Shown piece after piece: positions 10,085 through 53,961 of a stretch of 64,000 nt of DNA; the stretch's first letter is position 1, and each line of letters opens with the position of its first letter. This DNA comes from Octopus vulgaris. Its lineage: Eukaryota. A program made the translations under genes and the position numbers. Location of the stretch: positions 118,606,001 through 118,670,000 of the forward strand of contig OX597820.1 in the NCBI GenBank assembly GCA_951406725.2. The letters run 5' to 3'. The notes below the pieces were generated by a model that had not been told where the DNA came from, did no database searches, and was given only the letters and a program-made list of their open reading frames with translations.

Positions 10085-10734
10085 CAAAATGTAAACTCAC
10101 TCTTTTCACTTTCGACTTGGTGCTGTATGTATTAGACTTTATAGCATCCACAAGTCGTAACACAAGTGATAAATTACAATAGTTTCTTCATGCTTTATTC
10201 GCGATAATATATTAACGCACAGGATTAACTCATAGTGAGCAACGACTGCAGATTGACAGATGCAATAGAAAAGCATATTAAATTCAATTCCTGCAGTGTT
10301 TATTAGAAATGGGTTTGCAAGAAGCTTTTCGATTTATTTTTAAAGGAAGTGAAAATGCAGAATCGGATATTATACGGTGGAAAGCTCATTGTTAAATTCC
10401 TATATGTTTGGTAAATCTTATTTAACACTCCTTCAAAGCACTAACGTTTTCCACTTCAATCCTAGAGTTGTCTTAAAATTGTAATTGCTAAATTTATACG
10501 TATTTTTCTCTGGTTGAAGTTAGGGGATCAGTTGAAGCCGTGGTAGACTTTACATACCATTCAACCTTACTATAGTTATAAGAGAATTACAAGTCAAAGC
10601 AAAGACAGAGGGAAGCTTTATCTACGTCTGTGTGCCAATATTTCATTATATGAACGAATATAGGCATTCATATAAACACACATGCACACACAGAATTATC
10701 TTTGTCTTCTTTTCATTGGATACATACACATACA

Positions 10735-10765
<31 letters not shown>

Positions 10766-10846
10766 CTATCAATCTGTCTCTTTCTGTCTGTCTCTATATA
10801 AGCATTTATACATTCATACATGCATACATACATACATATATGCATA

Positions 10847-10920
<74 letters not shown>

Positions 10921-10928
10921 CTTGTCTG

Positions 10929-10996
<68 letters not shown>

Positions 10997-11189
10997 CATA
11001 TCATCTATCTGTCTGTGTGTGTGTATATATATGTGTATATATGTGTGTGTGTGTTTGTATATTTTGACAGAGATGATCAGAAAATGTGACGATCATAAAG
11101 CTCTGGGATGTGTCCAGGGAATTGAGCAAAGGTTTGCTCCTCTACATAACCTAGAAAGAGTTTGGTATATGTGGGGCTCATCCTGGAAT

Positions 11190-12110
11190 TCACCCTTCCC
11201 AAATCTGGACATCTCCGTCAAAATACACAATACCCACCTCTTCACAACTGTCTGCTATAAGCCTACTGACTCCCACTCCTACCTCTACTTCTCTTCCTCT
11301 CACCCCAAACACATTAACTCTGCTTTACCATTCTCTCAATTTCTTGGTCTTCGACGACTTTGCAACATCGAATCGGATTTCGAATCCCATTGCAAAACGA
11401 TGCAACGGTTTTTTTTCTAAATCGAGGGTATCCTCCGTCAGTTGTCGACTCGGCACTCCACCGAGCCCGAGCCGTCAACCGCAGCCCTCCTACCATCCTC
11501 ACCCACTTCCCCCAGCCGTATTCCACTCTCTCTTACCTACTACCCGTCCATCCTCCCTCTAAAGCTCACCCACAACTTTCGCATTCTTCTTTCTGATGCA
11601 ACAACCACCCATATCTTTCCCATACCGCCTCTCCTGCCTTTTAAAAATGATAGGAGTCTTAGAAAACTCCTTGTTAGAAGCTTCACAGCTCCCAGCTCCG
11701 ACCAACCAGGAACCTTTAAATGTTCCCACCGCCGAATTAACGCATGCCCCTACATCAGCGATATTACCACCATCAAGGGGCCCAAGAAGCAATATCACAT
11801 AGCACGCCACTTCGTTGCACTTCAGTGGATCGCTTATATTGCAACATATGCAAACTCTTCGGTGCTCTTTACATTGCAGAAACAGGGCAATGCCTTGGGG
11901 ATCGCTTACGCGAACACATCAGAAGCATAAGGCCTCGTTTGCCAGGCCAACCTGTCGTCACTCACGTCAACACTGAGAATCATCCTATTGCAGATTTATC
12001 AGTGTGTGGCGTGGCTATGCGCCACAGGCCCAGCTTCTCTAGAAAATAAAAGCAGCAACGTCTCATATTTGATCTTTGCACTATATCTCTAACAGGTATG
12101 CATGAACGTT
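11190..12110 (+). pseudogene. Penelope-like element (Neptune-type): RT C-terminus plus GIY-YIG endonuclease, frameshifted
   Basis: [38 protein letters not shown]; NRGYP; Cys-rich linker CSHRRINACPY; LYCNICK..LYIAETG..L.DRLREH..H split across frames. Confidence 0.9.
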
Positions 12111-12372
12111 TTCCCATTCATCCTTTCACTTAATCTTAATTCTTTTAGACCCTTTTTAATCTTCCTTCCACCCTCTCTCTGCAACATTCCCGTATTTACT
12201 TACCTCTGCTCTTTCCGTCACCATTTTCATCCTCCTTTCTGCACGCCTTCTCCCATAACTTCTGTTTCTCGTTATCTGCCCGCGTTATTCTGCGTCCATT
12301 TTCATTTGCAGCCAGTTTTTCAAGCTGAGAGGACGTAAAATGTGGTTGACTTTTTCTTCTCTTTTCCTCTGC

Positions 12373-12405
12373 CTCCTGACGAAGGATTGAATGTGAAACG
12401 TTGGA
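12373..12405 (+). ncRNA. Degenerate hammerhead in the 3' pLTR of the Penelope element
   Basis: CTGACGA-aggattgaatgt-GAAAC GTT about 270 bp after the GIY-YIG end; stems decayed. Confidence 0.5.
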
Positions 12406-12554
12406 TATTGCACTCCTCAGGGCAAGATCACTCTACTCCTGCCACTCTTTTCTATATTTTTTCAAGTTTTGCGACGCTGATCTTCTAGATTATTGCATGG
12501 TTATTATATGCATACATGCATGTGTGTATTAGATGTTACATATATACATATGTT

Positions 12555-12612
<58 letters not shown>

Positions 12613-12919
12613 AAAACATATGTATATATATATGTGTATGTACATATACATACACATGATTGATTGATTGATTCTAGTTTCAGCTTATGAGCTGTGGCCA
12701 TGCTGGGGCACCGCCATGTATAAATATATGTGTGTGTGTATGTGTGTGTATAAGAGTATCTATAGTTGTTCATATAGTATCATATTTACTCATTTACTAC
12801 GTTTATTATAAATTTATATAATATATATTATGTAATGTCTATCTATCTATCTATCTACATATTTAATATATGTACGTATATGCATACGAACATTTCTAGT
12901 ACATACATGTATATATATA

Positions 12920-12968
<49 letters not shown>

Positions 12969-13100
12969 TGAAGTAGATAAATGAATTATCTTATACGGAT
13001 ATTCAAATGATAACCGATACCTGGTAGCAAAAATCACAACAGAAAACACGGTTGTGGTTACGATCATAAATCCGTGCCTTAGTGCGGAAATTTGAAGTTT

Positions 13101-13232
13101 ATATATTTATTGTAGGAAGAAATGGAGCTGAACGAAGATTTAACAAAATTCCTTCTTATTATTTTCTACATACATATGTAGAAATAATAAAGAATTTTGT
13201 TAAATCTTCGTTCACTCCATTTCTTCCTACAC

Positions 13233-13241
<9 letters not shown>
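13101..13241. repeat. ~70-bp-arm imperfect palindrome adjoining (TA)n
   Basis: tgtaggaagaaatggag..ttctacata ca tatgtagaa..ctccatttcttcctaca. Confidence 0.85.
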
Positions 13242-13322
<81 letters not shown>

Positions 13323-13736
13323 TGTGTGTATATATATCTATAGAGCGAGAGAGAAAGAGGTTATGAGTGGTAATGGTGTCAATAAGACCCAAAGGTGTCA
13401 GGCAATGCTGAGTAAGTGCTATGGACAGACTATAGTTAAGTTCCAGGTGCGGTGATTATGCGAATAAGGAGTCCAACGTAGGTCATATATCAGCATGTGT
13501 ATATATAATTTATTTTTTCTCAGAATGAGATAAAATTCCAAGGGTGTGAAAGAATTCAGAACATTTATTAATAGAAGGTCTTCCGAGATATTTTTTATAT
13601 CCCTTCATCGGAGATGATTTGAGAAAATGGTTAAGCAATAGTTAATTTAGATAAGATATGAAATAGAGAGTGAAGTGGAGGAATAAAAACAGATGTGAGA
13701 TATGCAGGGACATTGCGTCTGTTGATCCATTATGCA

Positions 13737-13935
<199 letters not shown>

Positions 13936-14268
13936 GCGGGAACGACTGTTTCAACGAAGTCGCGTCCCGACGTTCGAAACGCGGGAGTAGATAAAACAGG
14001 GGACAACTGATAAAGGGAATGTGTTCTTTATGTTTCCTGTCTCGTTTCTGTATTTGTTTATTTCATTGTTCGAAAACAAGTTCGTTTTACATGTTTCTGT
14101 CTTTTTTTATGTTCTCGATTTCCATTCTGTTCACTTTTTTTGATGTCCTGTACCGATAAATGCATGTACATATACATATATATGTAGATATGTACATATT
14201 TGTATATATACATGCATATATATATATATATATATATATCCCACTTCTGACAAGCATCTTTTTGTGAA

Positions 14269-14609
14269 GGCGCATGGCTCAGTGGTTAGAGCGTCGAGCT
14301 TACGATCGTGAGGTTGTGAGCTCGAATCCCGGACCGGGCTGCGTGTTGTGTTCTTGAGCAAGACACTTTATTTCACGTTGCTCCAGTTCACTCAGCTGTA
14401 GAAATGAGTTGCGACGTCACAGGTGCCAAGCTGTATCGACCTTTGTCTTTCCCTTGGATAACACTGGTGGCGTGGAGAGGGGAGGCCGGTATGCATGGGC
14501 GACTACTGGTCTTCCATAAAACAACCTTGCCCAGACTTGTGCCTCAGAGGGTAACTCTCTAGGTGCAAACCCATGGTCACTTATGACCGAAGGGGGTCTT
14601 TAACCTTTA
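14269..14609 (+). mobile_element. tRNA-derived SINE family D (CORE-like)
   Basis: ggcgcatggctcagtggttagagcg head, ctcgaatccc B box, gttcttgagcaagacacttt CORE-like motif. Confidence 0.8.
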
Positions 14610-14632
14610 TATATATATATCATTCATATTAA

Positions 14633-14683
<51 letters not shown>

Positions 14684-14788
14684 AAGTAAGTAGTCAAAAG
14701 TTGAAGAAATGTTCTATTACTTATATGCACTTAGCAGTTTCATTACCTTTGGAAATTTTCAAACATTGTTGCCTATTTTATATATTGC

Positions 14789-14821
<33 letters not shown>

Positions 14822-15970
14822 TTGTGTCTGTGTGTGTGTGTATGTGTGTGTGGGTGTGGGGGGATGAGTGTGAGTGCATATGTGTGTGTGTATATATGTA
14901 AGTATTATGCATGTACGTACGCCAGCTGTTTTTTGAAGAACGTGGCAAAGAACAAATATTATCTGAAATGCTTGTGTTATTGATAAATCTGTCCAGAAAT
15001 GTCTAACTGTTTATTTATTGTTGGTTTTAATAGAGAGAAAATATTAGCCTTTTGATTGGCTTTCGATCAAGATATATTAATGTCATTTTATACATTTTTG
15101 TGCATGTCTGTGTTAGTGCGTAAGTTTGGTCCACTGCGCCTTTGAGTGTATGTATGTGTGTGTGTGTGTGTGGCTTTGCGCACATATGACGATTATTTAG
15201 AAATCATTTTCAGTAACCTGTCTTAGTAATAGCAGTAACGACAACGTAATTAAAATCTGGTGGCGACTTGGTTTCGTTCATCGGGAAAAGTTATTCTCCA
15301 ATAAAATTATTTTTTGTTAACAGAATATTTAAGCGTTTAACTTTGGAGCATATCTTTTGATAAAGTACTACTCAATTTTCTTCCGGCATTTTGAATAATC
15401 GTTTGGGCAATTTTAGAACGAGAAATATCTGGGATGTGTTGTTCAAATGGATTTCTAGATGTTTTTAAAACGGGATCCTCTATATTCTGCTCGTGTCATC
15501 TGATATTTATTCATTCTTACTTGCTCAGTGAGTTTCTCATCTGACGTCGGTCAACCGGAAACTCGCGTAGCAAGTAGGGTAACTTGTGCGATGTAATGAA
15601 CTTCTTGTTTCTCAGTTCATGTTTGCATTTATTTAGATTGGGTATCCAATTTGAAACTTTATATTGGGTCCAGTTTCGAGATATTTGAAATCGATACCGC
15701 ATATTCACATTTGCTGTACTCTCAAGCTTTTATGGACAATTCAGAATTGTCCCACCGCATGAATTCTACTCCTGTGGGTTGTATATAGCGTTTTTGTGGT
15801 TAAGGTTTGTTGTTCTTTATGTAACTTACAATTTGATTCATGTACTTCGACTAAAGCTCTCATTTCAGGGCTTTGAAATAGGATTAGTAGATTTGATTTC
15901 CCGGTGGGTAATATGAATGTCACTCCTGGATATATATGCATGTATATATATGTAAGTGTATATCTATAAA

Positions 15971-16176
15971 GTTAATCCAAACAAGAAAGCACCAAAAAAA
16001 CACAACAACGCGAGGACGTGGAACAAATATAGTATTATTGGACGCTCAGAAAAGATGGAAAGAAGGAGGGTTTAACGTTTCGAGCGGAGCTCTTCGTCGG
16101 AAACATAGGAGAAGGAAAGATCCAGAGAAGGGAAGACAGAGGAAAAAAAATCGCCAACGGTATACACACGAGGTCA
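15971..16176 (-). mobile_element. ~205-bp non-coding repeat with minimal hammerhead at 16070-16104
   Basis: Reverse complement gttt-CCGACGA-a-gagc tcc gctc-GAAACGTT-aaac; inverted copy at 17237. Confidence 0.75.
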
Positions 16177-16840
16177 CATTTTGTCTATCTATATGTATAT
16201 ACACTTATATAATATATAAATATGTGTATTGACATATGTAGGGTGTGTATCAGTTCGTGTGTGTACAGATGTCCTAATTCTAAGATATATGCCTGATGTA
16301 TATACACAAATATATATATACGCATGTCTCCCTTTCTGAATACGTTTTTGAGTTAAGAAGTATAGGACACTATCTGTGTCCCGGCGTTAAATAATATTTC
16401 GTTTAGAAAACAAATAATATAGTAAAATAGAGAACAAACATGTTTATAGACAACAATGAAAATATATAGAAAAATTAAACATGAATTACAGAAAAACAAA
16501 AGCTTGATTAACCATAAGAAATACGGTGAATGTAAAGTAAGAAGATAATAATAAAACAACGGGAGACAAAATGCAAATGTAAACGAAAGTATAAAAAATG
16601 AAATATATTATAATAACTGGAAAAAAAGCCTCAAACAAATGAAAATATTCTTTAAATACAATTGTTTATAAATTTATCTGTTTGTTTACTTAACTTTGTT
16701 TCTCTCTATTTAACTATGCAAATATCAACAGCGACACGAATGTTGATATTTACAAATGTTTGTATATGAGTGTATATATATATATATATATGTATATATA
16801 TAAGTGCGTGTGTGTGTGTCTGTATGTATATATAAATATA

Positions 16841-16897
<57 letters not shown>

Positions 16898-16933
16898 ACA
16901 TATATAGGCATATATGTATAAATGTATTTATAT

Positions 16934-17013
<80 letters not shown>

Positions 17014-17236
17014 TTATATATATATAGATACATATATATATATATATATACATTTATATATCTATGTCGCCATACGTGCATATACACACTTGCATTATCA
17101 TACAAATATATTATCTGGACCTTTGTCTCACAACTTAAACTCCATGCGCACCATATGTATAACATACACACATAAACACATGTTCATGCACATGTACACA
17201 CACACGCATGTATGTATATATATATATATATATATA

Positions 17237-17443
17237 TGACCTCGTGAGTACCGCTGGCGATTTTTTTCCTCTGTCTTCCCTTCTCGGGATCTTTCCTTCT
17301 CCTATGTTTCCGACGAAGAGCTCCGTTCGAAACGTTAAACCCTCCTTCTTCCCTTCTTTCCTGAGAGTCCAATAATACTTTATTTGTTCCACGTCCTCGC
17401 GTTGTTGTGTTGTTTTGTTTTTTTGTGGTTTCTTGTTTGGATT

Positions 17444-17446
<3 letters not shown>
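17237..17446 (+). mobile_element. ~210-bp non-coding repeat in (TA)n with minimal hammerhead at 17306-17340
   Basis: gttt-CCGACGA-a-gagc tcc gttc-GAAACGTT-aaac; (TA)n on both sides. Confidence 0.78.
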
Positions 17447-17503
<57 letters not shown>

Positions 17504-17889
17504 CATATTTATACACGTGTGTGCATATGTGAGCATGTGTATATGTATGCACTTACAATCTCACAAAGATATCCACACAGACTCATGCATATGGGTGGAT
17601 GCATTTTTAAGAGCGAGATGATTGATGTGTTGTGGATACTGGTACCTGGAAGAGAGGATTCGATATCATTATAGGGTAAACTTTCTGTTATATTAGAATT
17701 CTCTCTCTCCCGTATAGTAACGCGCCTGCGTGGATCTTCAGATTATATGTGCTTTTGCGTGTATTTCCGTGTGCGCGGGAAAGGAGTAGACATAGCTGTG
17801 GCCTCACAATTGCAGCTATTACTGCCTTCCTGGGACGACCAGTTCCATTTCAGTAAATTTGGTAGACAGAAACTCAGGCAAACCCGTCC

Positions 17890-17933
<44 letters not shown>

Positions 17934-18204
17934 CTGGGCAAAAGATGTACATACTCCGCTTTCTGCCAAAATTTGAATGCCCTTACCTAGGAAATCTGGG
18001 GTCTACCAATTTTGGACAGTCTTTAGTGTAACAGGCCGAAACTGTAATGATGATTGGAAGCTTGACAGATGAATAGAAATCCACGAATGTTCCGTCCTAG
18101 TTTTCTTGTCCATCTTTTCATCGTCCATCTGTTCGTATATTCTTATTGTCGTCCATTACGTTCTTGTTCCGTTTTTTGAAGCTATCTCTCTCTCTTTCTT
18201 TCTT

Positions 18205-18259
<55 letters not shown>

Positions 18260-18686
18260 GTACATATATAGATCTGTGCATGAGTTAGTGTATGTGCATG
18301 TCCCCAAACTGTTACATAACCAGTAGTGGTTTGTTTATTGCCTCCAACTTACCGGTTCGTCAAAAGCGAGCGGTAGAATAAGTACCAGACTTTACAAATA
18401 AATACTGCCATTGATCTATTCGACTTAACCACTTCAAAGAGGCGATCCAGCATGGTCGTAGTCCAATGAATGATACAAATGATACAAATGAAATAATATA
18501 ATATATACACGTGTGTGTGTGAGTGTGTATATACGGGAGAGCGTTTGGTTGCATACACCTTTTCAGTATTACACGTATACGTATACTAGCTTATATGGCT
18601 GTCTTCTCAGCCCACGTTTGTATATATGTTTGTACAATATGTGTATACATAGACATATATATATACGTGCATACTTATGTGTGTGC

Positions 18687-18762
<76 letters not shown>

Positions 18763-18797
18763 GTATAAATATATATATATAAATATAAATATAAATA

Positions 18798-18842
<45 letters not shown>

Positions 18843-20597
18843 TATATATTATATATATATATACGCACACATATATATTATGCGTGTATGTTATATGTAA
18901 TCAAATCAAAGCTAAACAAGCTAAAAATCTATTGGAAATATCTGGGTTTATCTAAATCTGAAGCCATGTCGCATAGGCAAAGGATCTGAAGATTCGCTTC
19001 AACTGAGCAGAACAGATTTTAATGTGTTTTCGGTTATCTGGGGAGTAATTGGTCAAAATCAGTGAACCACAAATGAAACATCGGATAGAATATATAAATA
19101 AAGAAACTGATGAACGGAAAATATATAAAGTTAAAGTAAATAGTAAATATAAATTATCAATAAATAACGAAGTTTTTTTTAATTTTATTTATGACAGATA
19201 AGTCTCTCTCCTTCTCTCTGGCTCTCAGTATCTCGGTCTCTCTTTATATACACACGCATGTATACGCTTATATATGTGCCTATATATGTGTAAATATCCC
19301 TCTCCTTTTCCCTTTCTCTTTATAAACGAATATATATCTATGTGTGTATATGTAGATATACAAACATGTATATGAACCAACTCATTACATTAAACCAACG
19401 TATTTCATTTTTATCCTATTTTAATATCACTATGTATAAGTGTATGAGTGTATATGCGTGTGTATATATATGTATGTTTGTGTGTGTGTGTATGTGTGTG
19501 TGTGTGTGTCAATGTAAATCTCCTGGCTTTCATTTTCTATGTGTATATGTGTGTTGTGCCTATTCTGCTACTATTCCTGGGTGTGCTCTTATACATACTG
19601 GTATACAAATTCCTATTGATATGATTCTTGTTGCTGAATTAGCTAAGACGCACCTCCTTTCCTTAAACTAATGATCTTTTCTGTATCCAATTCTCTCCAG
19701 ACTCTATTTTTTATATCCACTCCGCTCTTATCAGTAACCCTTATCTTCTTTTCTCCTAACCGTCATTTCTTAGATCATTTCACAGAGTCTTATGCACGAC
19801 TGCTAATCCTCTTCAAATCCCTGTCTTTCCCCACTAGACAAGCAGTAGGGTTTATTTATTGCCTCAAACTTACCAGTTCGCCAAAAGACAAATACAGCAA
19901 AAGAAAGAGCATTTTTCTGTGTCTCTCCGAAGAAAGACTGTGTACGAAGCGTCAAGCATCCATCTGCCAATAACAACCAAATATGGTAAACTTTCAAGTT
20001 GATGTGCACACACAGATATGCACACATATACACACACCCCTGCATACACACACATGCGTACGCACACATATTCGTATGCATGCTGAAGTATGTACATGTA
20101 CATAGATAAACTACTTAAATGGAACTGAACGTACTTTTTTCTGGACATGCCCTTTATCAAAGAGGAGTAAAAATATGAAGAGTGGCAAAAGGATAAGAAA
20201 AATGCACGATATTGAAAGTAAGAAATCTGTTTACGTAGCAGGTCTAATGTATGAGTGAAGCCGGCGAGTAGGATAGAAGGACCTGATGTAGCGGTATTAT
20301 CACGGTCCCAGGGAGAGTAAGTGGCAGTAGAGGGATGGATGGAGAGAGAGAAAAAGAAAGAGAGAGAGAGAGAGAGGGACGAAAAATTGAGAGAGATTAC
20401 AATATGTAATCGTGGGTGTGCATGTGTATTGTGAGGTTTAGTTAAATGTATCACATTTTCACTTTTGTAGAGAATAAATAGCATTTCTTGAAATACATGT
20501 AGTTATGTGTGTAGCAGTCATGCTTGCATTATATTGCATGTGTCCAATCAGGTATATTTATATACCTATGTGTATATATTTTTTTTTTTTTTTTTTT

Positions 20598-20829
20598 TTT
20601 TGTACTTGTTTCAGTCATTTGACTGCGGCCATGCTGGAGCACCGCCTTTTAGAGTGGTGAAAGAGTACAGCAGGGATCACCACCTCCTGCCGGAGCCTCG
20701 TGGAGCTTTTAGGTGTTTTTTTCGCTCAATAAACACACACAACGCCCGGTCTGGGAATCGAAACCGCGATCCTCCGACCGCAAGTCCGCTGCCCTAACCG
20801 CTAGGCCATTGCGCCTCCACATATATAAA

Positions 20830-20860
<31 letters not shown>

Positions 20861-21226
20861 TAAAAACGACAAACATGCACACATACAGAGTTCTGAAACT
20901 CGCACATACATGCTAGTCGTGGTGGCACTCCGTCGGTTACGACGACAAGCGTTCCAGTTGACCCAGTCAACGGAACAGCCTGCCCGCGAAATTATCCTGT
21001 AAGTGGCTGAGCACTCCAGAGAATACGTGTACCCTTAACGTAGTTCTCGGGGAGATTCAGCGTGACACAATGTGTGACAAGGCTGGCCCTTTAAAATACA
21101 GGTACAACAGAAACAGGAACTTTAGGTGTTTCCCTTCCTTAAACACAATGCCCGGTCTGGGAATCGAAACTGCGATCCCACGACCGCGAGTCCGCTGCCC
21201 TAGCCACTGGGCCATTGCACCTCCAC
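20598..21226 (-). mobile_element. SINE cluster: family C tail fused to a family B head (20598-20820); internally deleted family B (20925-21226)
   Basis: Similarity to 8224-8612 and 8806-9227. Confidence 0.8.
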
Positions 21227-27178: not shown

Positions 27179-27243
<65 letters not shown>

Positions 27244-27278
27244 GATGCATCTTTTTTCTATCTATCTATCTATCTATA

Positions 27279-27362
<84 letters not shown>

Positions 27363-27390
27363 CATGTATCTTTCTTTCTGTCTATCTATA

Positions 27391-27481
<91 letters not shown>

Positions 27482-27681
27482 TGACGGATGTGATGTCGTT
27501 TCAGCTCCGAAGGTAATCATTTATTTTGACTATTTATAGGCCAATTTTTGTGTAGATTTTTGCAAATAAGGTGTGTAAGGCAACCAACTTTCATTTGAGT
27601 GCTTTTCCAAGGGAGGAATTCGCCCCTAGGGGCAGTTTCGACCCCATTTCATTTCTATTATTTTCTTCTCGACATTAGAAA

Positions 27682-29550
27682 ATGTCTAGAAATTTTATTG
27701 TTGAACGCTGGTCGCGTTCTTTTTTGGAACAAAATTTTCCTAGTCTGGAAACGACAGAGAAAAAAAAGAACGTTCGCACGGAAAATGCCAACGTGAAATT
27801 CGGTGAGATGAACGCTGCAACCACGTGCGTTAACAGCCCTGTCACCAACGCCACCACCACCACTAACAACAGCAACCACGAGACAACAACTGCTACCACC
27901 ACCACCTCCACCACCACCACTACCACGACCAACATAAATGATAAAAATAAAACTGAAACGAAAACTATTGACAAAAACAACAGCAACAACAAGAACAACA
28001 ATAAAAATGAACTATCTAATAGTGAAGATGCCAATACAAAAAAGTCAACAACAGTAAATTTCGCAGATATTCTTCGCCAGAAAAAGGAGATTTTTACATT
28101 CACAAATGAAGAGCTCATAGAAACAAGAGCTCTCTTTACAACCCGTGGACAAGATTTAGTCCTGCATACACCTCAACATATAAAACAAGAAATTGAAAAT
28201 AAGACAATTGTATATAAAATTATTAGAAAAAACAAAAAACCAAATGAACAGATTACAAAAACTGATGTGGAGAAATGTTTAAAAAATATAATGAAAGAAA
28301 AAGAGTATATAAACTGGGGTCCACAGTTTAACACAGTAGTGGTCCGCTTCCCTAACCAGGAAGTGGCAAAAGCTCACTCTACTGAGTCTCTGGGAAATGA
28401 TGAAATCATCATGGTCCCTTATTATAAAAACCAGAGGGTGAGTAGAATTACTATCAGAAATGTACCCCCCGATATGCCGAACAAATGGATAACAGGGGCA
28501 ATCTGTTACCACTTGAAAAAGATCAATATTCTAGAAACAGCCGTGTACCTAAACGACAATTGGGGTGGAAAAACAGTAGTTGTGACCATCCAGATTGAGG
28601 GGGCCTCTATCGAGAGCCTACCCGACAAGATATACTTGGAGAATGGGCAATGCCTATATGTTATGGCAGAAGGCAAAAAGCCTAGATGCTACAAATGTGG
28701 CAGCCCCGAACATTTGATTGCCAAGTGCGATCTGGTACAGAAAAAACAAGAAAGAACAATTCAGAAAACAAATAAAATCCCTTTGCTGCCAACACCAACA
28801 CCAACACACTCAATTATGGAACAACGCCAAGAAAAACAACAAACCCCAACAACATCACCAAGAAAAACAGTACCAACTCAATCACCGTTGACGTCACAAC
28901 CAATTAAACTTGTTGAATCTTCAAAAAATCGACCCACACCCACACCCAGGACGACAATTAAAAAGACAGAAAACACTGACGAGAAGACAAATGCTACCCC
29001 TAACACCACAACAACACAAACACCGCACAAAACATCAACAATTTATACAAGCATACATAGTGATCCTGTTCTTTTTCCTCTACCCCATACTGATACCTCG
29101 GACGACGAAAGTTCGACGGAATGGCAAATAGCCACAGGGGGTAAAAGAAAAAGATCCAAAAAATCCACCAAACAAGGAATTAAAGCAGGGAGATATCTCA
29201 CTCAGGACAACATTCCCCTAGACAATCAAAAAAGTAATGAACCCGTAAAACCACACACACAACTAACTGCAATAGACACAGACAATAAAGAATTAATGGA
29301 CTACATCAAATCTAACATGGTCGTCTGTGAAGATGATTTTAAGACAAACAATCATCCGCACACCACACCACCGAAACACATCAGAATTTTACACATAACA
29401 CAAGCACAACACCACATACTGAAAACATTATTTCCGAATGCGGTAGGCGGGTATCAACGATACCTGTCGAAAAAACTATACAAACACCTCATCAAAAACG
29501 ATACAAAAGAAGAAGAAGAAAAAAATGAAACTTTTAAAATGAGTAAGTGA
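27682..29550 (+). CDS. LINE ORF1p, 622 aa: RRM-like region, one CCHC zinc knuckle, low-complexity termini
   Basis: CYKCGSPEHLIAKC = CX2CX4HX4C; RITIRNVPPDM RRM-like strand; lies 57 bp upstream of ORF2. Confidence 0.9.
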   Translation: MSRNFIVERWSRSFLEQNFPSLETTEKKKNVRTENANVKFGEMNAATTCVNSPVTNATTTTNNSNHETTTATTTTSTTTTTTTNINDKNKTETKTIDKNNSNNKNNNKNELSNSEDANTKKSTTVNFADILRQKKEIFTFTNEELIETRALFTTRGQDLVLHTPQHIKQEIENKTIVYKIIRKNKKPNEQITKTDVEKCLKNIMKEKEYINWGPQFNTVVVRFPNQEVAKAHSTESLGNDEIIMVPYYKNQRVSRITIRNVPPDMPNKWITGAICYHLKKINILETAVYLNDNWGGKTVVVTIQIEGASIESLPDKIYLENGQCLYVMAEGKKPRCYKCGSPEHLIAKCDLVQKKQERTIQKTNKIPLLPTPTPTHSIMEQRQEKQQTPTTSPRKTVPTQSPLTSQPIKLVESSKNRPTPTPRTTIKKTENTDEKTNATPNTTTTQTPHKTSTIYTSIHSDPVLFPLPHTDTSDDESSTEWQIATGGKRKRSKKSTKQGIKAGRYLTQDNIPLDNQKSNEPVKPHTQLTAIDTDNKELMDYIKSNMVVCEDDFKTNNHPHTTPPKHIRILHITQAQHHILKTLFPNAVGGYQRYLSKKLYKHLIKNDTKEEEEKNETFKMSK

Positions 29551-29607
29551 CCTCACTTCTTGCCTCTTGTCTCTTCTAATATAGTGTGTAAAACACAATT
29601 TTCGTAA

Positions 29608-32600
29608 ATGTCAAGTATGCTTAAATTAGGTTGTGTGAATGCGCGTGGCTTGGCGTCGGCTTGGAAGCAAGGTTACCTTCTAAACGACATCAAGTCACTG
29701 GACGTGGATATAGTAGCTATCAGCGAAACCAGACTCAGTAAGCCGCGGGCCCTCGAGTCCATGTTTGGCAATCAATTTGACATTTATTTTTCTCCCTGTC
29801 TGCCGAACATGGGTGGTGGAGGTACTGCGGTGCTTTTTCGAAAGAGTCTAAAGGTAAAAGTAAGAGCAATATTCCTAGACCCGGAGGGTAGGCTGGTTGT
29901 CTTGGACGTGGATGGCAGAAATGGGTGTGCATTCCGTCTGATGGCAGTTTATGCACCGTCCTTAACGGGTCGGGCGGATTTCTTCAGACGTCTAGAGGTT
30001 TTCCTGGGTACGTCTAGACCTTTACTGTTAGTAGGGGATTGGAACGCTACCTTGGACACGCATCTAGATTATGTGGGAAGGGATAGGAATAGAAGGGGGT
30101 GTAAGAGCCTCAAAGACCTGCTCAGACGTTTCCATTTGTCTGACAGGTTCCGACTCGACCATCCGAACGTGCCAACGTGGACTTGGACAAACCGCGTCGG
30201 ATCGTCGAGATCTTATCTAGATAGAATTCTATGCAGGACAGCGGATAGGGATAGTGTAGGATGTCCACAATTTAAAATAGTCAGCTACACAGATCACAAA
30301 TTTGTTACGTGTACGCTCGACTTAGATAAAACACATAGGCAGGGTCCCGGTTACTGGAAACTGAACACGTCGCTGTTAGCGCGACAGGTTTACAGGAACC
30401 GGATTAGCGATTTAATTAAGAGGGCGCTGACGGGAGCGGTCGTTAACAACCGCTGGTGGTACGCCCTGAAAATGGCAATAAAATCGGAATCAATTAGGTT
30501 TAGCAAGGAATTAGCGATAGAACGAAATAGAGTAGAGGGAGACTTAGTTAAGAAACTAGAAGAGGCACTTACCACTGGCAGCGCAACCAACGTGCTAGCT
30601 GCGAGGATGGCCCTCGACCAACACCTCAACGCCAAGCACGAAGGTTGCGTCGTCAGAGCTAAAATGCGTGCCTTAAGGAACGAAGGGATTGAAGCTGCGC
30701 GAGAGGCCCGGGTAGCGGAGGCGCAGCGTGGCAACAGATCAACCATTCGGTCTCTAATAGATCAACAGGGATGCAGTTTACTCGAACCCGAAAGGATGTG
30801 TGAGGCCTTTCAACAGCACTTTGCTCGACTGTTTGGTGCGAGTGGTGGGTCGGAACGAGGGATGGATTTCAGTGCCTACCTGACCGACCTGCCGCGGCTC
30901 TCGGCAAGAGAGGCGGAGTGTTGTGAAAGTCCCATCACAGCCGCTGACGTGTGGGATGCGATGGCGGGCTGCGCGAGGGATAAGTCGCCTGGATTGGATG
31001 GTTTACCCTACGAGCTGTATTGTCGAATGCCAGACTTGTTTGGCGACCTCTTGGCATCAGTCTACTGCAACTGGCAACAAAACGGGAGAATCCCCGGTTT
31101 CGTGAGCCGAGGTGCAGTGACGTTGCTGAAGAAAGACTCAAACAAGGGGAATTTTATAGATAATTTCAGGCCCATCACTCTGCTCAACGCAGATTTGAAA
31201 ATTTTGGCCAAAGTAATAACCGAGAGGTTGGCGCTTGTCATTGGTAAACTGGTCGACAGGGCGCAAACATGCGCCGTGCCGGGCAGAACCATACATGACA
31301 ACCTCCATCTGATGCGCTACATTGTGGACAGGGTAGTTAAGGATCCTGGCATGGGTGGGGCGCTGATAAATTTGGATCAGTCTAAAGCCTTCGATAGGGT
31401 CGACCATCGGTACTTGGCGGCCGTCCTCAGGGCGGCTGGCTTCGGTCCCGTCTTCCGCGGTTGGATCGCTGCCTTGTATAGCGGCATCCGATCGGTGATT
31501 CGGGTAAACGGTCACCTGTCTAAACCGTTTGACATCACGCGTTCGGTCCGTCAGGGGTGTCCCCTGTCGGCGCTTCTGTATGTATTGACTCTCGAGCCGC
31601 TACTGCGGAAGCTGGCGACACTGAGGGGCATCCCACGGGAACTGGGTTGCGGGACGAGCGTGTCGGCATATGCGGACGATGTCACCGTCATAGTGTCGAG
31701 CTACCAGCACATCGAGCTGGTCGGCGAGACACTAAGAAAATATGAAACGGTGACGGGAGCAAAGATTAACCCGGAAAAGTCAGTGGGTTTGCTACTCGGC
31801 ACCTGGAGAAGCAAGCCCATGCCGTCCGACTGCGGCTCAGTAGTGGGACGCTGGACGGACGGACCGGTTAAATTGCTCGGGGTCTGGTTCAGTCCGGACC
31901 TCCAAATGGATAAGAACTGGGACGAGATCACGAGTAGAGTGGTCGCTCTCAGCCAAACATGGGCCGAGAGAAAGCTGTCTCTAAAAGGCCGGGCGGAGGT
32001 GGCGAACGCGTACATCGCATCCGTCATCGATTACCGCCTGACCGTCGTACCTTGTCCCGACGCCACCATCACCAAACTGGAACGCATACTCTTCCGCTTC
32101 CTGTGGAAGGGTGGCGTTCCGATGGTGAGGAAGTCCATTTGCTGTCAACATCCGTTGAATGGAGGACTGGGCATGCCGTGGTTGATGATGCGCAGGCATG
32201 CGCTGAGACTGCGACATCTCTGGAAATTCATCGACGACGGTGAACAGGTGTGGGCGCCGTTTGTGAGGCGCGACTTCCCGCAGCTCGTCTCACTGACCGA
32301 ACTGCAAACGTGGATCAAAAAGAGACCGAAACTGGGCGATTGGCACCGAGAGTGTCGCCAAGCTCTACAGCAGCTCTGCCGACCGGGGTCAAACTTGTGC
32401 AACTTCCAAACGACTAAAGCGTTCTATAGAGGACTAGTGGAGGGGAGGTCCGACGACACACTCGGGGCAAACTTGGGCGTCGACGAGGAATTCCTAACCC
32501 GCCTGTTCAGGACGACGTTCGGGCCGGGGCCTATGGATAACTTCCAGAAATCCCTGGCTTGGCAGTGCTATCGAGACGCACTACCTGTTCGAGAGAAGAG

Positions 32601-33057
32601 CTACAGACACGGTTCGAAAACCATCACCGGACCGACCTGCCCGAGATGCGGTCAGAGCGACGAAACCGTTCTGCACGCACTCGTGCAGTGTCCAGATATT
32701 TCAGAGCTGTGGTCCTTCGTCGAACAGCTGTTGTCACGTGTAGGTCAGGCTCGCCTATCGGCCGAGTCTATTGTGGATATTGTTCCACCACCTTCCTTTA
32801 AACGGGAAGGGAAAACGGCTTTCGTTACGCTGATGGCTATGGCGAAAGAATGTGTGTGGTGGACGCGTTTGAAAGGACTGCAAACAAACACCTTCCTCTC
32901 TGGTCAGTCTCTCGTCAACTTTTTCAAGTACCACTTGAAAAGGAGGATGAGAATAGAGAGGAAGGCTTTGTCGAACGAATGTTTTAATAAAAAGTGGGTA
33001 AAAGTGGCAAAAATGGTCAGTATGAAAGACGACACTATTTTAAGCATAAATCTGTAA
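29608..33057 (+). CDS. LINE ORF2p, 1149 aa: APE endonuclease, reverse transcriptase, C-terminal zinc finger
   Basis: NARGL, ISETR, YAP, GDWN, YLDR, TDH (APE); KSPGLDG, RPITLLN, LDQSKAFDRV, RQGCPLS, YADD (RT); CPRC..ETVLH....C. Confidence 0.97.
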   Translation: MSSMLKLGCVNARGLASAWKQGYLLNDIKSLDVDIVAISETRLSKPRALESMFGNQFDIYFSPCLPNMGGGGTAVLFRKSLKVKVRAIFLDPEGRLVVLDVDGRNGCAFRLMAVYAPSLTGRADFFRRLEVFLGTSRPLLLVGDWNATLDTHLDYVGRDRNRRGCKSLKDLLRRFHLSDRFRLDHPNVPTWTWTNRVGSSRSYLDRILCRTADRDSVGCPQFKIVSYTDHKFVTCTLDLDKTHRQGPGYWKLNTSLLARQVYRNRISDLIKRALTGAVVNNRWWYALKMAIKSESIRFSKELAIERNRVEGDLVKKLEEALTTGSATNVLAARMALDQHLNAKHEGCVVRAKMRALRNEGIEAAREARVAEAQRGNRSTIRSLIDQQGCSLLEPERMCEAFQQHFARLFGASGGSERGMDFSAYLTDLPRLSAREAECCESPITAADVWDAMAGCARDKSPGLDGLPYELYCRMPDLFGDLLASVYCNWQQNGRIPGFVSRGAVTLLKKDSNKGNFIDNFRPITLLNADLKILAKVITERLALVIGKLVDRAQTCAVPGRTIHDNLHLMRYIVDRVVKDPGMGGALINLDQSKAFDRVDHRYLAAVLRAAGFGPVFRGWIAALYSGIRSVIRVNGHLSKPFDITRSVRQGCPLSALLYVLTLEPLLRKLATLRGIPRELGCGTSVSAYADDVTVIVSSYQHIELVGETLRKYETVTGAKINPEKSVGLLLGTWRSKPMPSDCGSVVGRWTDGPVKLLGVWFSPDLQMDKNWDEITSRVVALSQTWAERKLSLKGRAEVANAYIASVIDYRLTVVPCPDATITKLERILFRFLWKGGVPMVRKSICCQHPLNGGLGMPWLMMRRHALRLRHLWKFIDDGEQVWAPFVRRDFPQLVSLTELQTWIKKRPKLGDWHRECRQALQQLCRPGSNLCNFQTTKAFYRGLVEGRSDDTLGANLGVDEEFLTRLFRTTFGPGPMDNFQKSLAWQCYRDALPVREKSYRHGSKTITGPTCPRCGQSDETVLHALVQCPDISELWSFVEQLLSRVGQARLSAESIVDIVPPPSFKREGKTAFVTLMAMAKECVWWTRLKGLQTNTFLSGQSLVNFFKYHLKRRMRIERKALSNECFNKKWVKVAKMVSMKDDTILSINL

Positions 33058-33236
33058 CCAAAAGAGACAACGAGAAGTAAGGCGACTTACTCATGTGTTC
33101 TTTTTCGAATTGCCTGAGGTGACCTTGGTCTTTTTTGTAGGTTTTTCTTTCCAAGGCTACACCTAAACTGTGAACCTTATATATATATATATACTGCTTT
33201 TTTATACACCACACAACCCACAGATCCCTATTGATC

Positions 33237-33268
<32 letters not shown>

Positions 33269-33367
33269 CTTCTTGCCCCACCCATCCTACCTCGAAAAGA
33301 AAAAATTCTACATTGTATTTCGTCCATTTTTATTCTGTGTTTAGCCCTGTGTGGCTACAATAAAAAG

Positions 33368-33416
<49 letters not shown>

Positions 33417-33434
33417 CATGTATCTTTCTTTCTG

Positions 33435-33488
<54 letters not shown>

Positions 33489-33501
33489 CATGTATCTTTT
33501 T

Positions 33502-33559
<58 letters not shown>

Positions 33560-33576
33560 CATGTATCTTTCTTTCT

Positions 33577-33647
<71 letters not shown>

Positions 33648-33942
33648 ATCCTTCTATATATCTTTCTATCTGTCTGTCTGTCTCTCTCTCTTTATCTATC
33701 TATTTATCTATCTATCTTTTTTTCTGTCTGTCGAATTATTCTTTATCTGTCGGTGTATGTATGTCATTATTCTGTTTTATTTCAAGATTTCTTGCCAACA
33801 GAGAACGAACCGGTTTCTAACCTAGATCCAAGGCTCCTTCAATGGGATATCAACATTGGCAACAGGGTATTTTTTCATGTATGTATATACGTATGTATAT
33901 GTGCAGATTTGTACGTCTTGTTTAATGTATATATTTAAATTA

Positions 33943-38270: not shown

Positions 38271-38377
38271 TAGTCACCGAAACAAATAAGAGATAAAAAA
38301 AGACTTAAATATTTCAATGATGGTGAGTTGAGAGAATTTTGCAATCAGTAAGCGGTGTTTTTATTCGTATAAGGATA

Positions 38378-39218
38378 TCTCATATTTGTATATATGATAT
38401 GATATTTGCATTATGATATGTAATATTTGTATATATGATATATTTGCATCATATGTCATATTTGTATATATATGATATGATATTTGCCTTATGATAAGTC
38501 ATATTTGTATATAAGATATGATATTTGCATTATGATATGTCATATTTGTATATAAGATATGATATTTGCATTATGATATGTCATATTTGTATATATGATG
38601 TAATATTTGCATTATGATAAGTCATATTTGTATATAAGATATGATATTTTCCTAATGATAAGTCATATTTGTATATAAGATATGATATTTGCATTATGAT
38701 GTGTCATATTTGTATATATGATATTTGCATTATGATGTCATATTTGTATATATGATGTAATATTTGCATTATGCTGTGTCATATTCTTATATATGATATA
38801 TTTGCATTATGATGTGTCATATTTGTATATATGATATGATATTTGCATTATGATATGTCATATTTGTATATATGATATGATATTTGCATTATGATAAGTC
38901 ATATTTGCATATATGATATATTTGCATTATGATGTGTCATATTTGTATATATGATATGATATTTGCATTATGATATGTCATATTTGTATATATGATATGA
39001 TATTTGCATTATGATAAGTCATATTCGTATATATGATATATTTGCATTATGATATATCATATTAGTATATATGATATGATATTTGCATTATATGTCATAT
39101 TTGTATATATGATATGATATTTGCATTATGATAAGTCATATTTGCATATATGATATATTTGCATTATGATATGTCATATTAGTATATATGATATGATATT
39201 TGCATTATATGTTATATT
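38378..39218. repeat. AT-rich minisatellite, ~36-41-bp unit, ~20 copies
   Basis: Repeated tcatatttgtatatatgatatgatatttgcattatgatatg. Confidence 0.95.
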
Positions 39219-45917: not shown

Positions 45918-46546
45918 TATAAAATAAAAATCAAACAAAAGAAAAAGAAAGGGAAACTTCTGGACGCCTCAAAGAATCCGGTTCTCCTGTTCCTGTCGGG
46001 GTTTAAGCTTCTGCGAGAATGAAGGCATTCCGTTCGTTACTCTTCACATCCATAACCAAGCTCCAGTCCCTTCCTAAACAATCTAGAAGCTCAGCTTCCT
46101 GTCAACTTAGAGACAAGAAAATCTTGTATTCACGAAAAATGCAGATGAAGGCCCGTGGGCGAAGAATCCATCTTTTGCTGACGGTCACCACATGTATTTC
46201 TTGTTCATCTATTGTTTATATTTTTCCTGAAGTCTCTTACTCCTTTGGGCTATTTAAAAAAAAATGTTGTATGTGCGTTGTGACATTCGTGAAAGCGATG
46301 CAGTTGATTGTAATAATTGTAGTTTTGTATATGTACTTCATTTTTGTTTATTTACTGTTTATGTTTATGTTTATGGAATATAGGATTTCCTCGCTTTTGT
46401 TTGTGTTGGAGGATGCGTCCATGACTCTGAATTTGATTCTGCTTGCGATAGTGGTAGCGGTGGTGGTGACAGGGCGATGGCTTTGATAGCTTCTTGTGTA
46501 GCTGTTGTTAACGATGATGTTGAGGTATCGTTGCTTAAACGCATCC

Positions 46547-47094
46547 CTCCATTTGTAGACATCACCTTCGTTTGTTGAAATCCCCCCGTTTGTAGACATC
46601 TCCCCCATTTGTAGACATCACCTTTGTTTGTTGAAATCCCCCCGTTTGTAGACATCTCCCCCATTTGTAGACATCACCTTTGTTTGTTGAAATCCCCCCG
46701 TTTGTTGATATCTCTCCCTTTGTTGACATCTCTCCCTTTGTTGAAATTCCCCCTTTTGTTGACATCCCCCCGTTTGTTGACACCCCCCGTTTGTTGACAT
46801 CTTCCCCGTTTGTTGACATCTCCCCCATTTGTTGACATCCCCCCTGTTTGTTGACATCCCCTGTTTGTTGACATCTCCTCCATTTGTTGACATTCCCCGT
46901 TTGTTGACATCTCCCGTTTGTTGACATCTTCCCCGTTTGTTGACATCTCCGTTTGTTGACATCTCCCCCATTTGTTGACATCTCCCCTGTTTGTTGACAT
47001 CCTCCCGTTTGTTGACAACCCCCGTTTGTTGACATCCCCCCGTTGGTTGACATCTCCGTTTGTTGATACCCACCCCCGTCTGTTGACATCTCCC
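46547..47094. repeat. Minisatellite, ~17-20-bp unit gtttgttgacatctccccc, with a 58-bp higher-order trimer at the left
   Basis: direct reading. Confidence 0.95.
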
Positions 47095-53731: not shown

Positions 53732-53961
53732 ACATTGAATAATATGGGTTCAAAAAAAGTTTTTTACATAATTGTCACATTGAATATTATGCATTCAAAA
53801 AGGTTTTTTACATAATTGTCACATTGGATATTATGGGTTCAAAAAAAGTTTTTTACATAATTGTCACATTGAATATTATGCATTCAAAAAAGTTTTTTAC
53901 ATAATTGTCACATTGGATATTATGAATTCAAAAATGTTTTTTTATACATAATTGTCACATT
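53732..53961. repeat. ~45-bp tandem repeat, ~5 copies with alternating variants
   Basis: acattgaatattatgcattcaaaaaagttttttacataattgtc units. Confidence 0.9.

Follow-up and report, generated by a model that had tools for sequence, protein, structure and literature searches.

The element and its insertion site

We identified a LINE of 5,887 bp (27482-33368) in the window, by which we mean the whole 64-kb stretch of DNA that was analysed. We set its two ends where the sequence departs from the surrounding (TATC)n array (Table 1). Both ORFs are open and lie on the + strand, as a sequence-only reading of this DNA had claimed. The span given in that reading, 27179-33715, correctly encloses the element and takes in both TATC arrays as well, so the limits are narrowed here. 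The 3' end reads AATAAAAAGT, which stands directly before TATC; the earlier description of an AATAAA-AAGT end with no poly(A) is therefore accurate (AATAAA at 33359-33364). Self-comparison of the 64-kb window returned the self match only and no second copy of the element.

Table 1. Features of the LINE and its flanking arrays (positions in the window).
Feature	Position	Strand	Remarks
5' half of compound (TATC)n array	27179..27481	+	interruption motifs at ~27243 and ~27362
LINE 5' UTR	27482..27681	+	starts TGACGG
ORF1, 622 aa	27682..29550	+	T/N-rich N-terminus; one CCHC knuckle (aa 336-349); low-complexity C-terminus
ORF2, 1149 aa	29608..33057	+	APE endonuclease, reverse transcriptase, C-terminal zinc finger
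APE endonuclease domain, ORF2 aa 1-238	29608..30321	+	
Reverse transcriptase core, Pfam aa 510-760 of ORF2	31135..31887	+	YADD at aa 688
C-terminal CCHC-type zinc finger, ORF2 aa 1011-1028	32638..32691	+	
LINE 3' UTR	33058..33368	+	(TA)n and T27 tracts, AATAAA, end AAGT
3' half of (TATC)n array	33369..33717	+	interruption motif at ~33416, ~33488 and ~33559

The upstream array reads [TATC]16 GATGCATCTTTTTTC [TATC]4 TATA [TATC]21 CATGTATCTTTCTTTCTGTC TATCTATA [TATC]22 TAT and is followed by TGACGG. Downstream of AATAAAAAGT, the array reads [TATC]12 CATGTATCTTTCTTTCTGTC [TATC]13 CATG and onward. An interruption motif, CATGTATCTTT(C)TTT.., is common to both flanks, and its core (ATG[CT]ATCTTT) has five matches in the 64-kb window, all of them in the two flanking arrays (two upstream and three downstream). 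Because this rare motif is common to both, we infer that the arrays are the halves of one older array or a long target duplication, and therefore that the site contained TATC before the insertion. Self-comparison of the window identified the DNA upstream of the 5' array as non-element. The flanks and their common motif thus bear out the claim that both junctions lie within (TATC)n.

Perfect TATC arrays (at least five units) make up 556 bases, or 0.97% of the window outside the LINE locus. A single insertion in TATC is thus roughly a 1-in-100 event and is not decisive alone. For this reason, the case for targeting rests on junctions in public contigs. Perfect TATC arrays occur at five loci of the window (1216, 10847, 27179/33369, 34474 and 44604); each carries TATC, and none GATA, on the + strand.

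Other features of the window include minisatellites at 38374-39208 (41 bp unit, 21 copies), 46544-47094 (19 and 56 bp units, ~30 and 10 copies) and 53732-53961 (44 bp unit, 5 copies). The region at ~11190-11990 is, by eye, what we take to be a decayed fragment of a Penelope-type RT/GIY-YIG element; a Pfam search of the ORF at 10650-11420 gave no matches.

Protein domains and class of element

We identified three Pfam domains in ORF2: Exo_endo_phos (1e-16), RVT_1 (1e-29) and zf-RVT (7e-6). The same search gave no match to an RNase H family. The best PDB match of ORF2 is human L1 ORF2p (E 1e-57), which scores 198 bits versus at most 81 bits for R2. The APE endonuclease has all seven catalytic positions (N11, E40, Y115, D144, N146, D205 and H230), and its structure model (pLDDT 93) has the L1 endonuclease 1vyb as best Foldseek match (E 7e-21). 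The hairpin loop of this domain, T192-S202, which influences specificity, matches the L1 loop in length (nine residues between the anchors); in relatives of ~40% identity the loop is 2-4 residues longer.

ORF1 matches zf-CCHC in Pfam with an E value of 0.002, under the curated cut-off. Its Atlas look-alikes (score 0.91-0.93), which we treat as a lead, fall in zf-CCHC and ZCCHC3-type RBD clusters. The central region of ORF1 is likely RNA-binding. Judged by its predicted proteins, the element is a non-LTR retrotransposon of the L1 group and of APE type, as an endonuclease, an L1-like reverse transcriptase with a zinc finger, and a separate ORF1 are all present.

Relatives

The nearest protein (P0001) is 71% identical over 80% of ORF2 and 75% identical over the reverse transcriptase region. 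The closest named protein is a hypothetical protein of the octopod Argonauta hians (P0097), with 68% identity over the latter region, so that an octopod is the likely host. A quick reverse transcriptase tree of 53 rows, which left out P0043 and P0046 (short alignment) and was built without reference Tx1, Keno, Kibi or Koshi elements, places the LINE and these two proteins on one branch (SH-aLRT 99). This branch is sister to 15 proteins of ~40% identity (an 18-row branch, SH-aLRT 100), and the deeper forks are weak. The sole row named TX1, an automatically named Stylophora protein, has 39% identity over the reverse transcriptase region versus 27% for a plant L1.

For one of these ~40% families the DNA context is available: head-to-tail arrays of an intact ORF2 relative (41-42% identity, units of ~6.4-6.9 kb) were identified at 40 of 43 loci (L081-L119 and L123), on contigs 2-18 of the MAG record CAXXMW01. 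This bacterial MAG is labelled Arenicella, and the arrays are probably host DNA. The ORF1 of one of these relatives (L101) is 24% identical to that of the window over 191 aa. The copies stop one or two letters after AATAAA, with neither poly(A) nor a microsatellite tail; the 44 matches comprise 31 distinct junction strings. A TATC array is absent from all 123 loci retrieved for distant relatives. Thus, the tail-less end is common to the lineage and the TATC flank is not. Short, subfamily-specific spacers occur between the tandem copies, before both full-length and truncated next copies, and resemble target duplication between tandem insertions.

Other bacterial MAG records (L120, L121 and L122) have L1/Tx1-like ORF2 matches of 27-30%, two of them amid eukaryote-like microsatellites; these are likely host contamination. 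The 80 metagenome loci are distant (mostly 22-36%, with one segment of 44%) and hold no target information. In viral contigs, none of 94 candidate stretches proved to be a relative at the protein level, and a search with a 3'-end pattern gave no match. Tracts of (AT)n or (GT)n near the contig ends of L017, L032, L120 and L121 were considered as targets and rejected, as they are not at demonstrable element ends. Rfam, run on four of the 40 tandem-array loci, gave a MIR5743 match that was rejected (31 bits versus a cut-off of 111).

Junctions of other copies

Of 24 listed public runs, 20 (10 studies and three organism labels) contain 0.53-0.83 of the words of the element; no RNA data set is listed for it. 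All contigs of four of these 20 runs (X9, X4, X16 and X7) were placed, at 85% likeness, on the element with 19-20 letters of TATC per side. Positions 33178-33388 were left out as repeat, so that the placement covers the 5' side, and the window copy supplies the only 3' junction. At this likeness other subfamilies are mixed in. The reference contained TATC as its only flank, so only TATC flanks could appear as joints.

Among joints with letters between the joined pieces, all of the best 12 of 355 rows connect the upstream TATC, up to 27481, with a position inside the element. Nine distinct internal positions are represented (32032, 32161, 32188, 32233, 32309, 32427, 32834, 32917 and 32954), and in 11 of these 12 best-supported rows the intervening letters start as a continuation of the array. 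The joints at 32233 and 32427 have identical letters in X4 and X9, which come from different studies with different organism labels; the joint at 32954 is present in both runs, with differing letters. A tenth truncation point is given by a joint from 27482 to 32893 in X9 and X4 (best 15 of 606 rows). A full-length 5' variant, with seven extra letters after the array, follows TATC in X9, X4 and X16 (best 12 of 19 rows). TATC has the same orientation at all TATC junctions among the rows listed. The TATC side of joints with intervening letters comprises at most 19 reference letters. As listed rows are the best supported ones, and TATC contigs are probably inflated in depth, these 12 rows are biased toward TATC and give no rate.

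Across 10 distinct rows, the overlap of the junction with the array is zero letters in three and two letters in three, and the remaining four have 1-9 untemplated letters. Inferring the phase of the nick from these letters was considered and rejected, as the set is limited to joints with intervening letters, which biases the phase.

TATC adjoins 5' truncation points, which would not be expected of a tail and favours the view that it is a target. The sequence-only reading had named TATC confined to 3' ends as the observation that would count against targeting; instead, truncated copies follow TATC at 10 internal points, as does the full-length variant. The element also departs in this respect from RTE-type elements with microsatellite tails, in which the repeat is found only at the 3' end.

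Contig depth, which is not a measure of copy number, climbs toward the 3' part of ORF2. Recurrent joints also link 32567/32570 to 32653, 32655, 32708, 32715 and 32920 in three runs (best 15 of 606 rows), which suggests that the terminal part of ORF2 is prone to deletion or that non-autonomous derivatives arise there.

Probable specificity for TATC

Records that run past the ends of the placed stretch number 119 of 17,714 (X9), 180 of 20,942 (X4), 51 of 12,147 (X16) and 0 of 382 (X7). Records that continue for at least 20 letters into unlike sequence have a share of 0, 0, 0.01 and 0.06, respectively. The earlier reading had held that random flanks at other copies would count against a TATC target; these shares speak for targeting in the three deep runs and against it in X7, and serve as a rough bound only. 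By eye, the best 24 of 4,583 loose ends comprise 22 with diverged element sequence and two that are unclear; among these 24 there is no clear foreign flank and no (TA)n or (AAT)n.

On the assumption that each run-over record represents a 5' TATC junction and that unlike shares are counted per record, a rough TATC share of visible junctions is at least 57% (X9), at least 63% (X4) and 22-46% (X16), with none in X7, compared with a background of 0.97%. The estimate is inflated to the extent that foreign-flank contigs with only ~30 letters of element overlap escaped placement. A published criterion for target preference asks that a single type of sequence make up over 20% of flanks (PMC4494074). 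The proposal of GATA-repeat specificity made from the window alone gains support from the 10 TATC truncation points and the full-length variant.

Age and variation

The window copy differs from the eight listed X7 pieces at 15 of 3,164 letters (~0.5%). Among the 40 of 750 difference rows that were listed, the alternative letter accounts for 70% of depth or more in all three deep runs in 30 rows. We classed 29 of these 30 (31506 was left out): three are in UTRs, 14 are synonymous and 12 are non-synonymous, and none introduces a stop. By this measure of divergence the family is young, with several subfamilies; its youth had been suggested before, and the 15 differences in the X7 pieces support it.

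Proposed target choice and mechanism

We identify an intact LINE of the L1/Tx1 group in (TATC)n and conclude, with a probability of about 0.65, that its family likely prefers to insert in TATC/GATA repeats, with the APE endonuclease probably nicking the GATA strand. The endonuclease would set the choice of target, as it does for Tx1L (PMC1950540). Target-primed reverse transcription, as established for other elements, would here start from the nicked GATA strand, which primes cDNA synthesis at the 3' end of the RNA, and the reverse transcriptase would often halt early. The truncated cDNA end would then join the upstream TATC via 0-2 common letters or a few untemplated ones. More speculatively, the nick may fall at the single TpA step of each GATA unit, and read-through of the transcript into flanking TATC may let the RNA pair with the primer.

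A broader preference for TpA-rich microsatellites (TA, TATC and AAT), with TATC as one target among several, is unlikely. L1-type endonucleases cut TpA (PMC13295347, PMC6007223), and the nine-residue hairpin loop has the length of that of L1 and not the 11 residues of Tx1L. (AT)n is the commonest repeat of the window (2,222 bases versus 600 for AGAT), and (TA)n flanks would have been invisible, as they may have dropped out with the (TA)n-bearing 3' UTR that was skipped in placement. However, TATC is found at 10 truncation points and at full-length ends in one orientation among the rows listed, and the best 24 of 4,583 loose ends include neither (TA)n nor (AAT)n.

Chance, in the form of a promiscuous, high-copy family in a TATC-rich genome that yields tens of random TATC junctions, is highly improbable. 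The 12,147-20,942 contigs placed per deep run do imply many copies, and at ~1% TATC several thousand random insertions, a denominator that the contigs leave out of view, would give tens of such junctions. Nevertheless, records that run into unlike sequence amount to 0-1% in the deep runs, a proportion similar in magnitude to that of the run-over records, the best 24 of 4,583 loose ends had no clear foreign flank by eye, and both the full-length window copy and the full-length variant are in TATC.

Least probable of the three is that TATC is the element's own tail and that template jumps, or copies arranged head-to-tail in tandem, give rise to 5' TATC: tandem build-up does occur in the lineage (the 41-42% relatives) and the listed joints describe the junction contigs from TATC onward, but the upstream array of the window is preceded by non-element DNA and has a rare motif in common with the downstream array, and the tandem-array relatives end at AATAAA plus one or two letters with no microsatellite tail.

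A preference for TATC/GATA could also be part of something larger. An octopod-specific LINE lineage may have independently evolved a GATA-reading endonuclease and entered a feedback loop, in which insertions split or duplicate GATA arrays and read-through RNA spreads TATC, so that the element both uses and breeds the GATA repeats in which this genome abounds. We consider this decidedly unlikely. If true, the endonuclease would amount to a naturally occurring integrase with specificity for GATA repeats, which could be put to use in other GATA-rich genomes.

Comparison with known site-specific LINEs

Among APE LINEs, site-specific members occur only in the Tx1 and R1 clades (PMC6007223). Tx1 LINEs on microsatellites include Kibi, on (TC)n, and Koshi, on (TTC)n, of teleosts, and crocodilian families on (TTCC)n and (TTTC)n (PMC4494074, PMC3812793). 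The sequence-only reading had Kibi and Koshi right and missed the crocodilian families (PMC4494074). Like these elements, the LINE described here is of APE type with two ORFs and lies inside a microsatellite in fixed orientation. The known Tx1 units (TC, TTC, TTCC and TTTC) contain nothing but pyrimidines when read in the sense direction, whereas TATC has an A and a TpA step. The hosts also differ (teleosts and crocodilians versus, likely, an octopod).

Tx1L of Xenopus targets Tx1D, and its endonuclease was shown to be sequence-specific (PMC1950540). It has the same APE, reverse transcriptase and zinc finger order in ORF2, and specificity is likely set by the endonuclease. However, the target of Tx1L is a site in a transposon and its loop has 11 residues; here the target is a simple repeat and the loop has nine. 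Other LINEs that target microsatellites are Waldo (ACAY), Mino (AC) and Dong (TAA) (PMC3812793), and Togen, which targets (TG)n (PMC4640811). These also use abundant simple repeats, but they belong to other clades and have other units, none of which is TATC/GATA.

An annotation of L1-Tx1 elements in Octopus vulgaris reports 80 families (56.3 Mb), including 13 recently active families with 421 insertions (PMC13282606). It probably covers the same class of element and host group, and this family may be among its consensus sequences. In the available portions of that source, neither TATC nor GATA is matched in the main text and supplement, nor is 'target' in the supplement. The accessible parts of PMC5753468, PMC8869645, PMC9115989 and PMC8967140 likewise mention no TATC/GATA target. 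A published LINE with this target was not found in our literature search, conducted outside Repbase, which agrees with the earlier statement that no such family was known; an existing database entry is possible. A tetranucleotide target is itself not new; the TATC motif and the host lineage appear to be.

Implications

Few microsatellites are known as targets of APE-type LINEs, and the family would extend them by a repeat that is not purely pyrimidine. The mechanism by which target specificity changes has been described as not well understood (PMC3812793), and this LINE and its 41-42% relatives, which have different junctions, lend themselves to a comparison of how specificity shifts among APE endonucleases. 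A young, intact, multi-copy family is also a ready source of enzyme for nicking and retrotransposition assays. Targeting of TATC may refine the annotation of octopus repeats, in which recently active L1-Tx1 families are listed without targets, and may explain common flanks and unstable alleles at octopod GATA markers.
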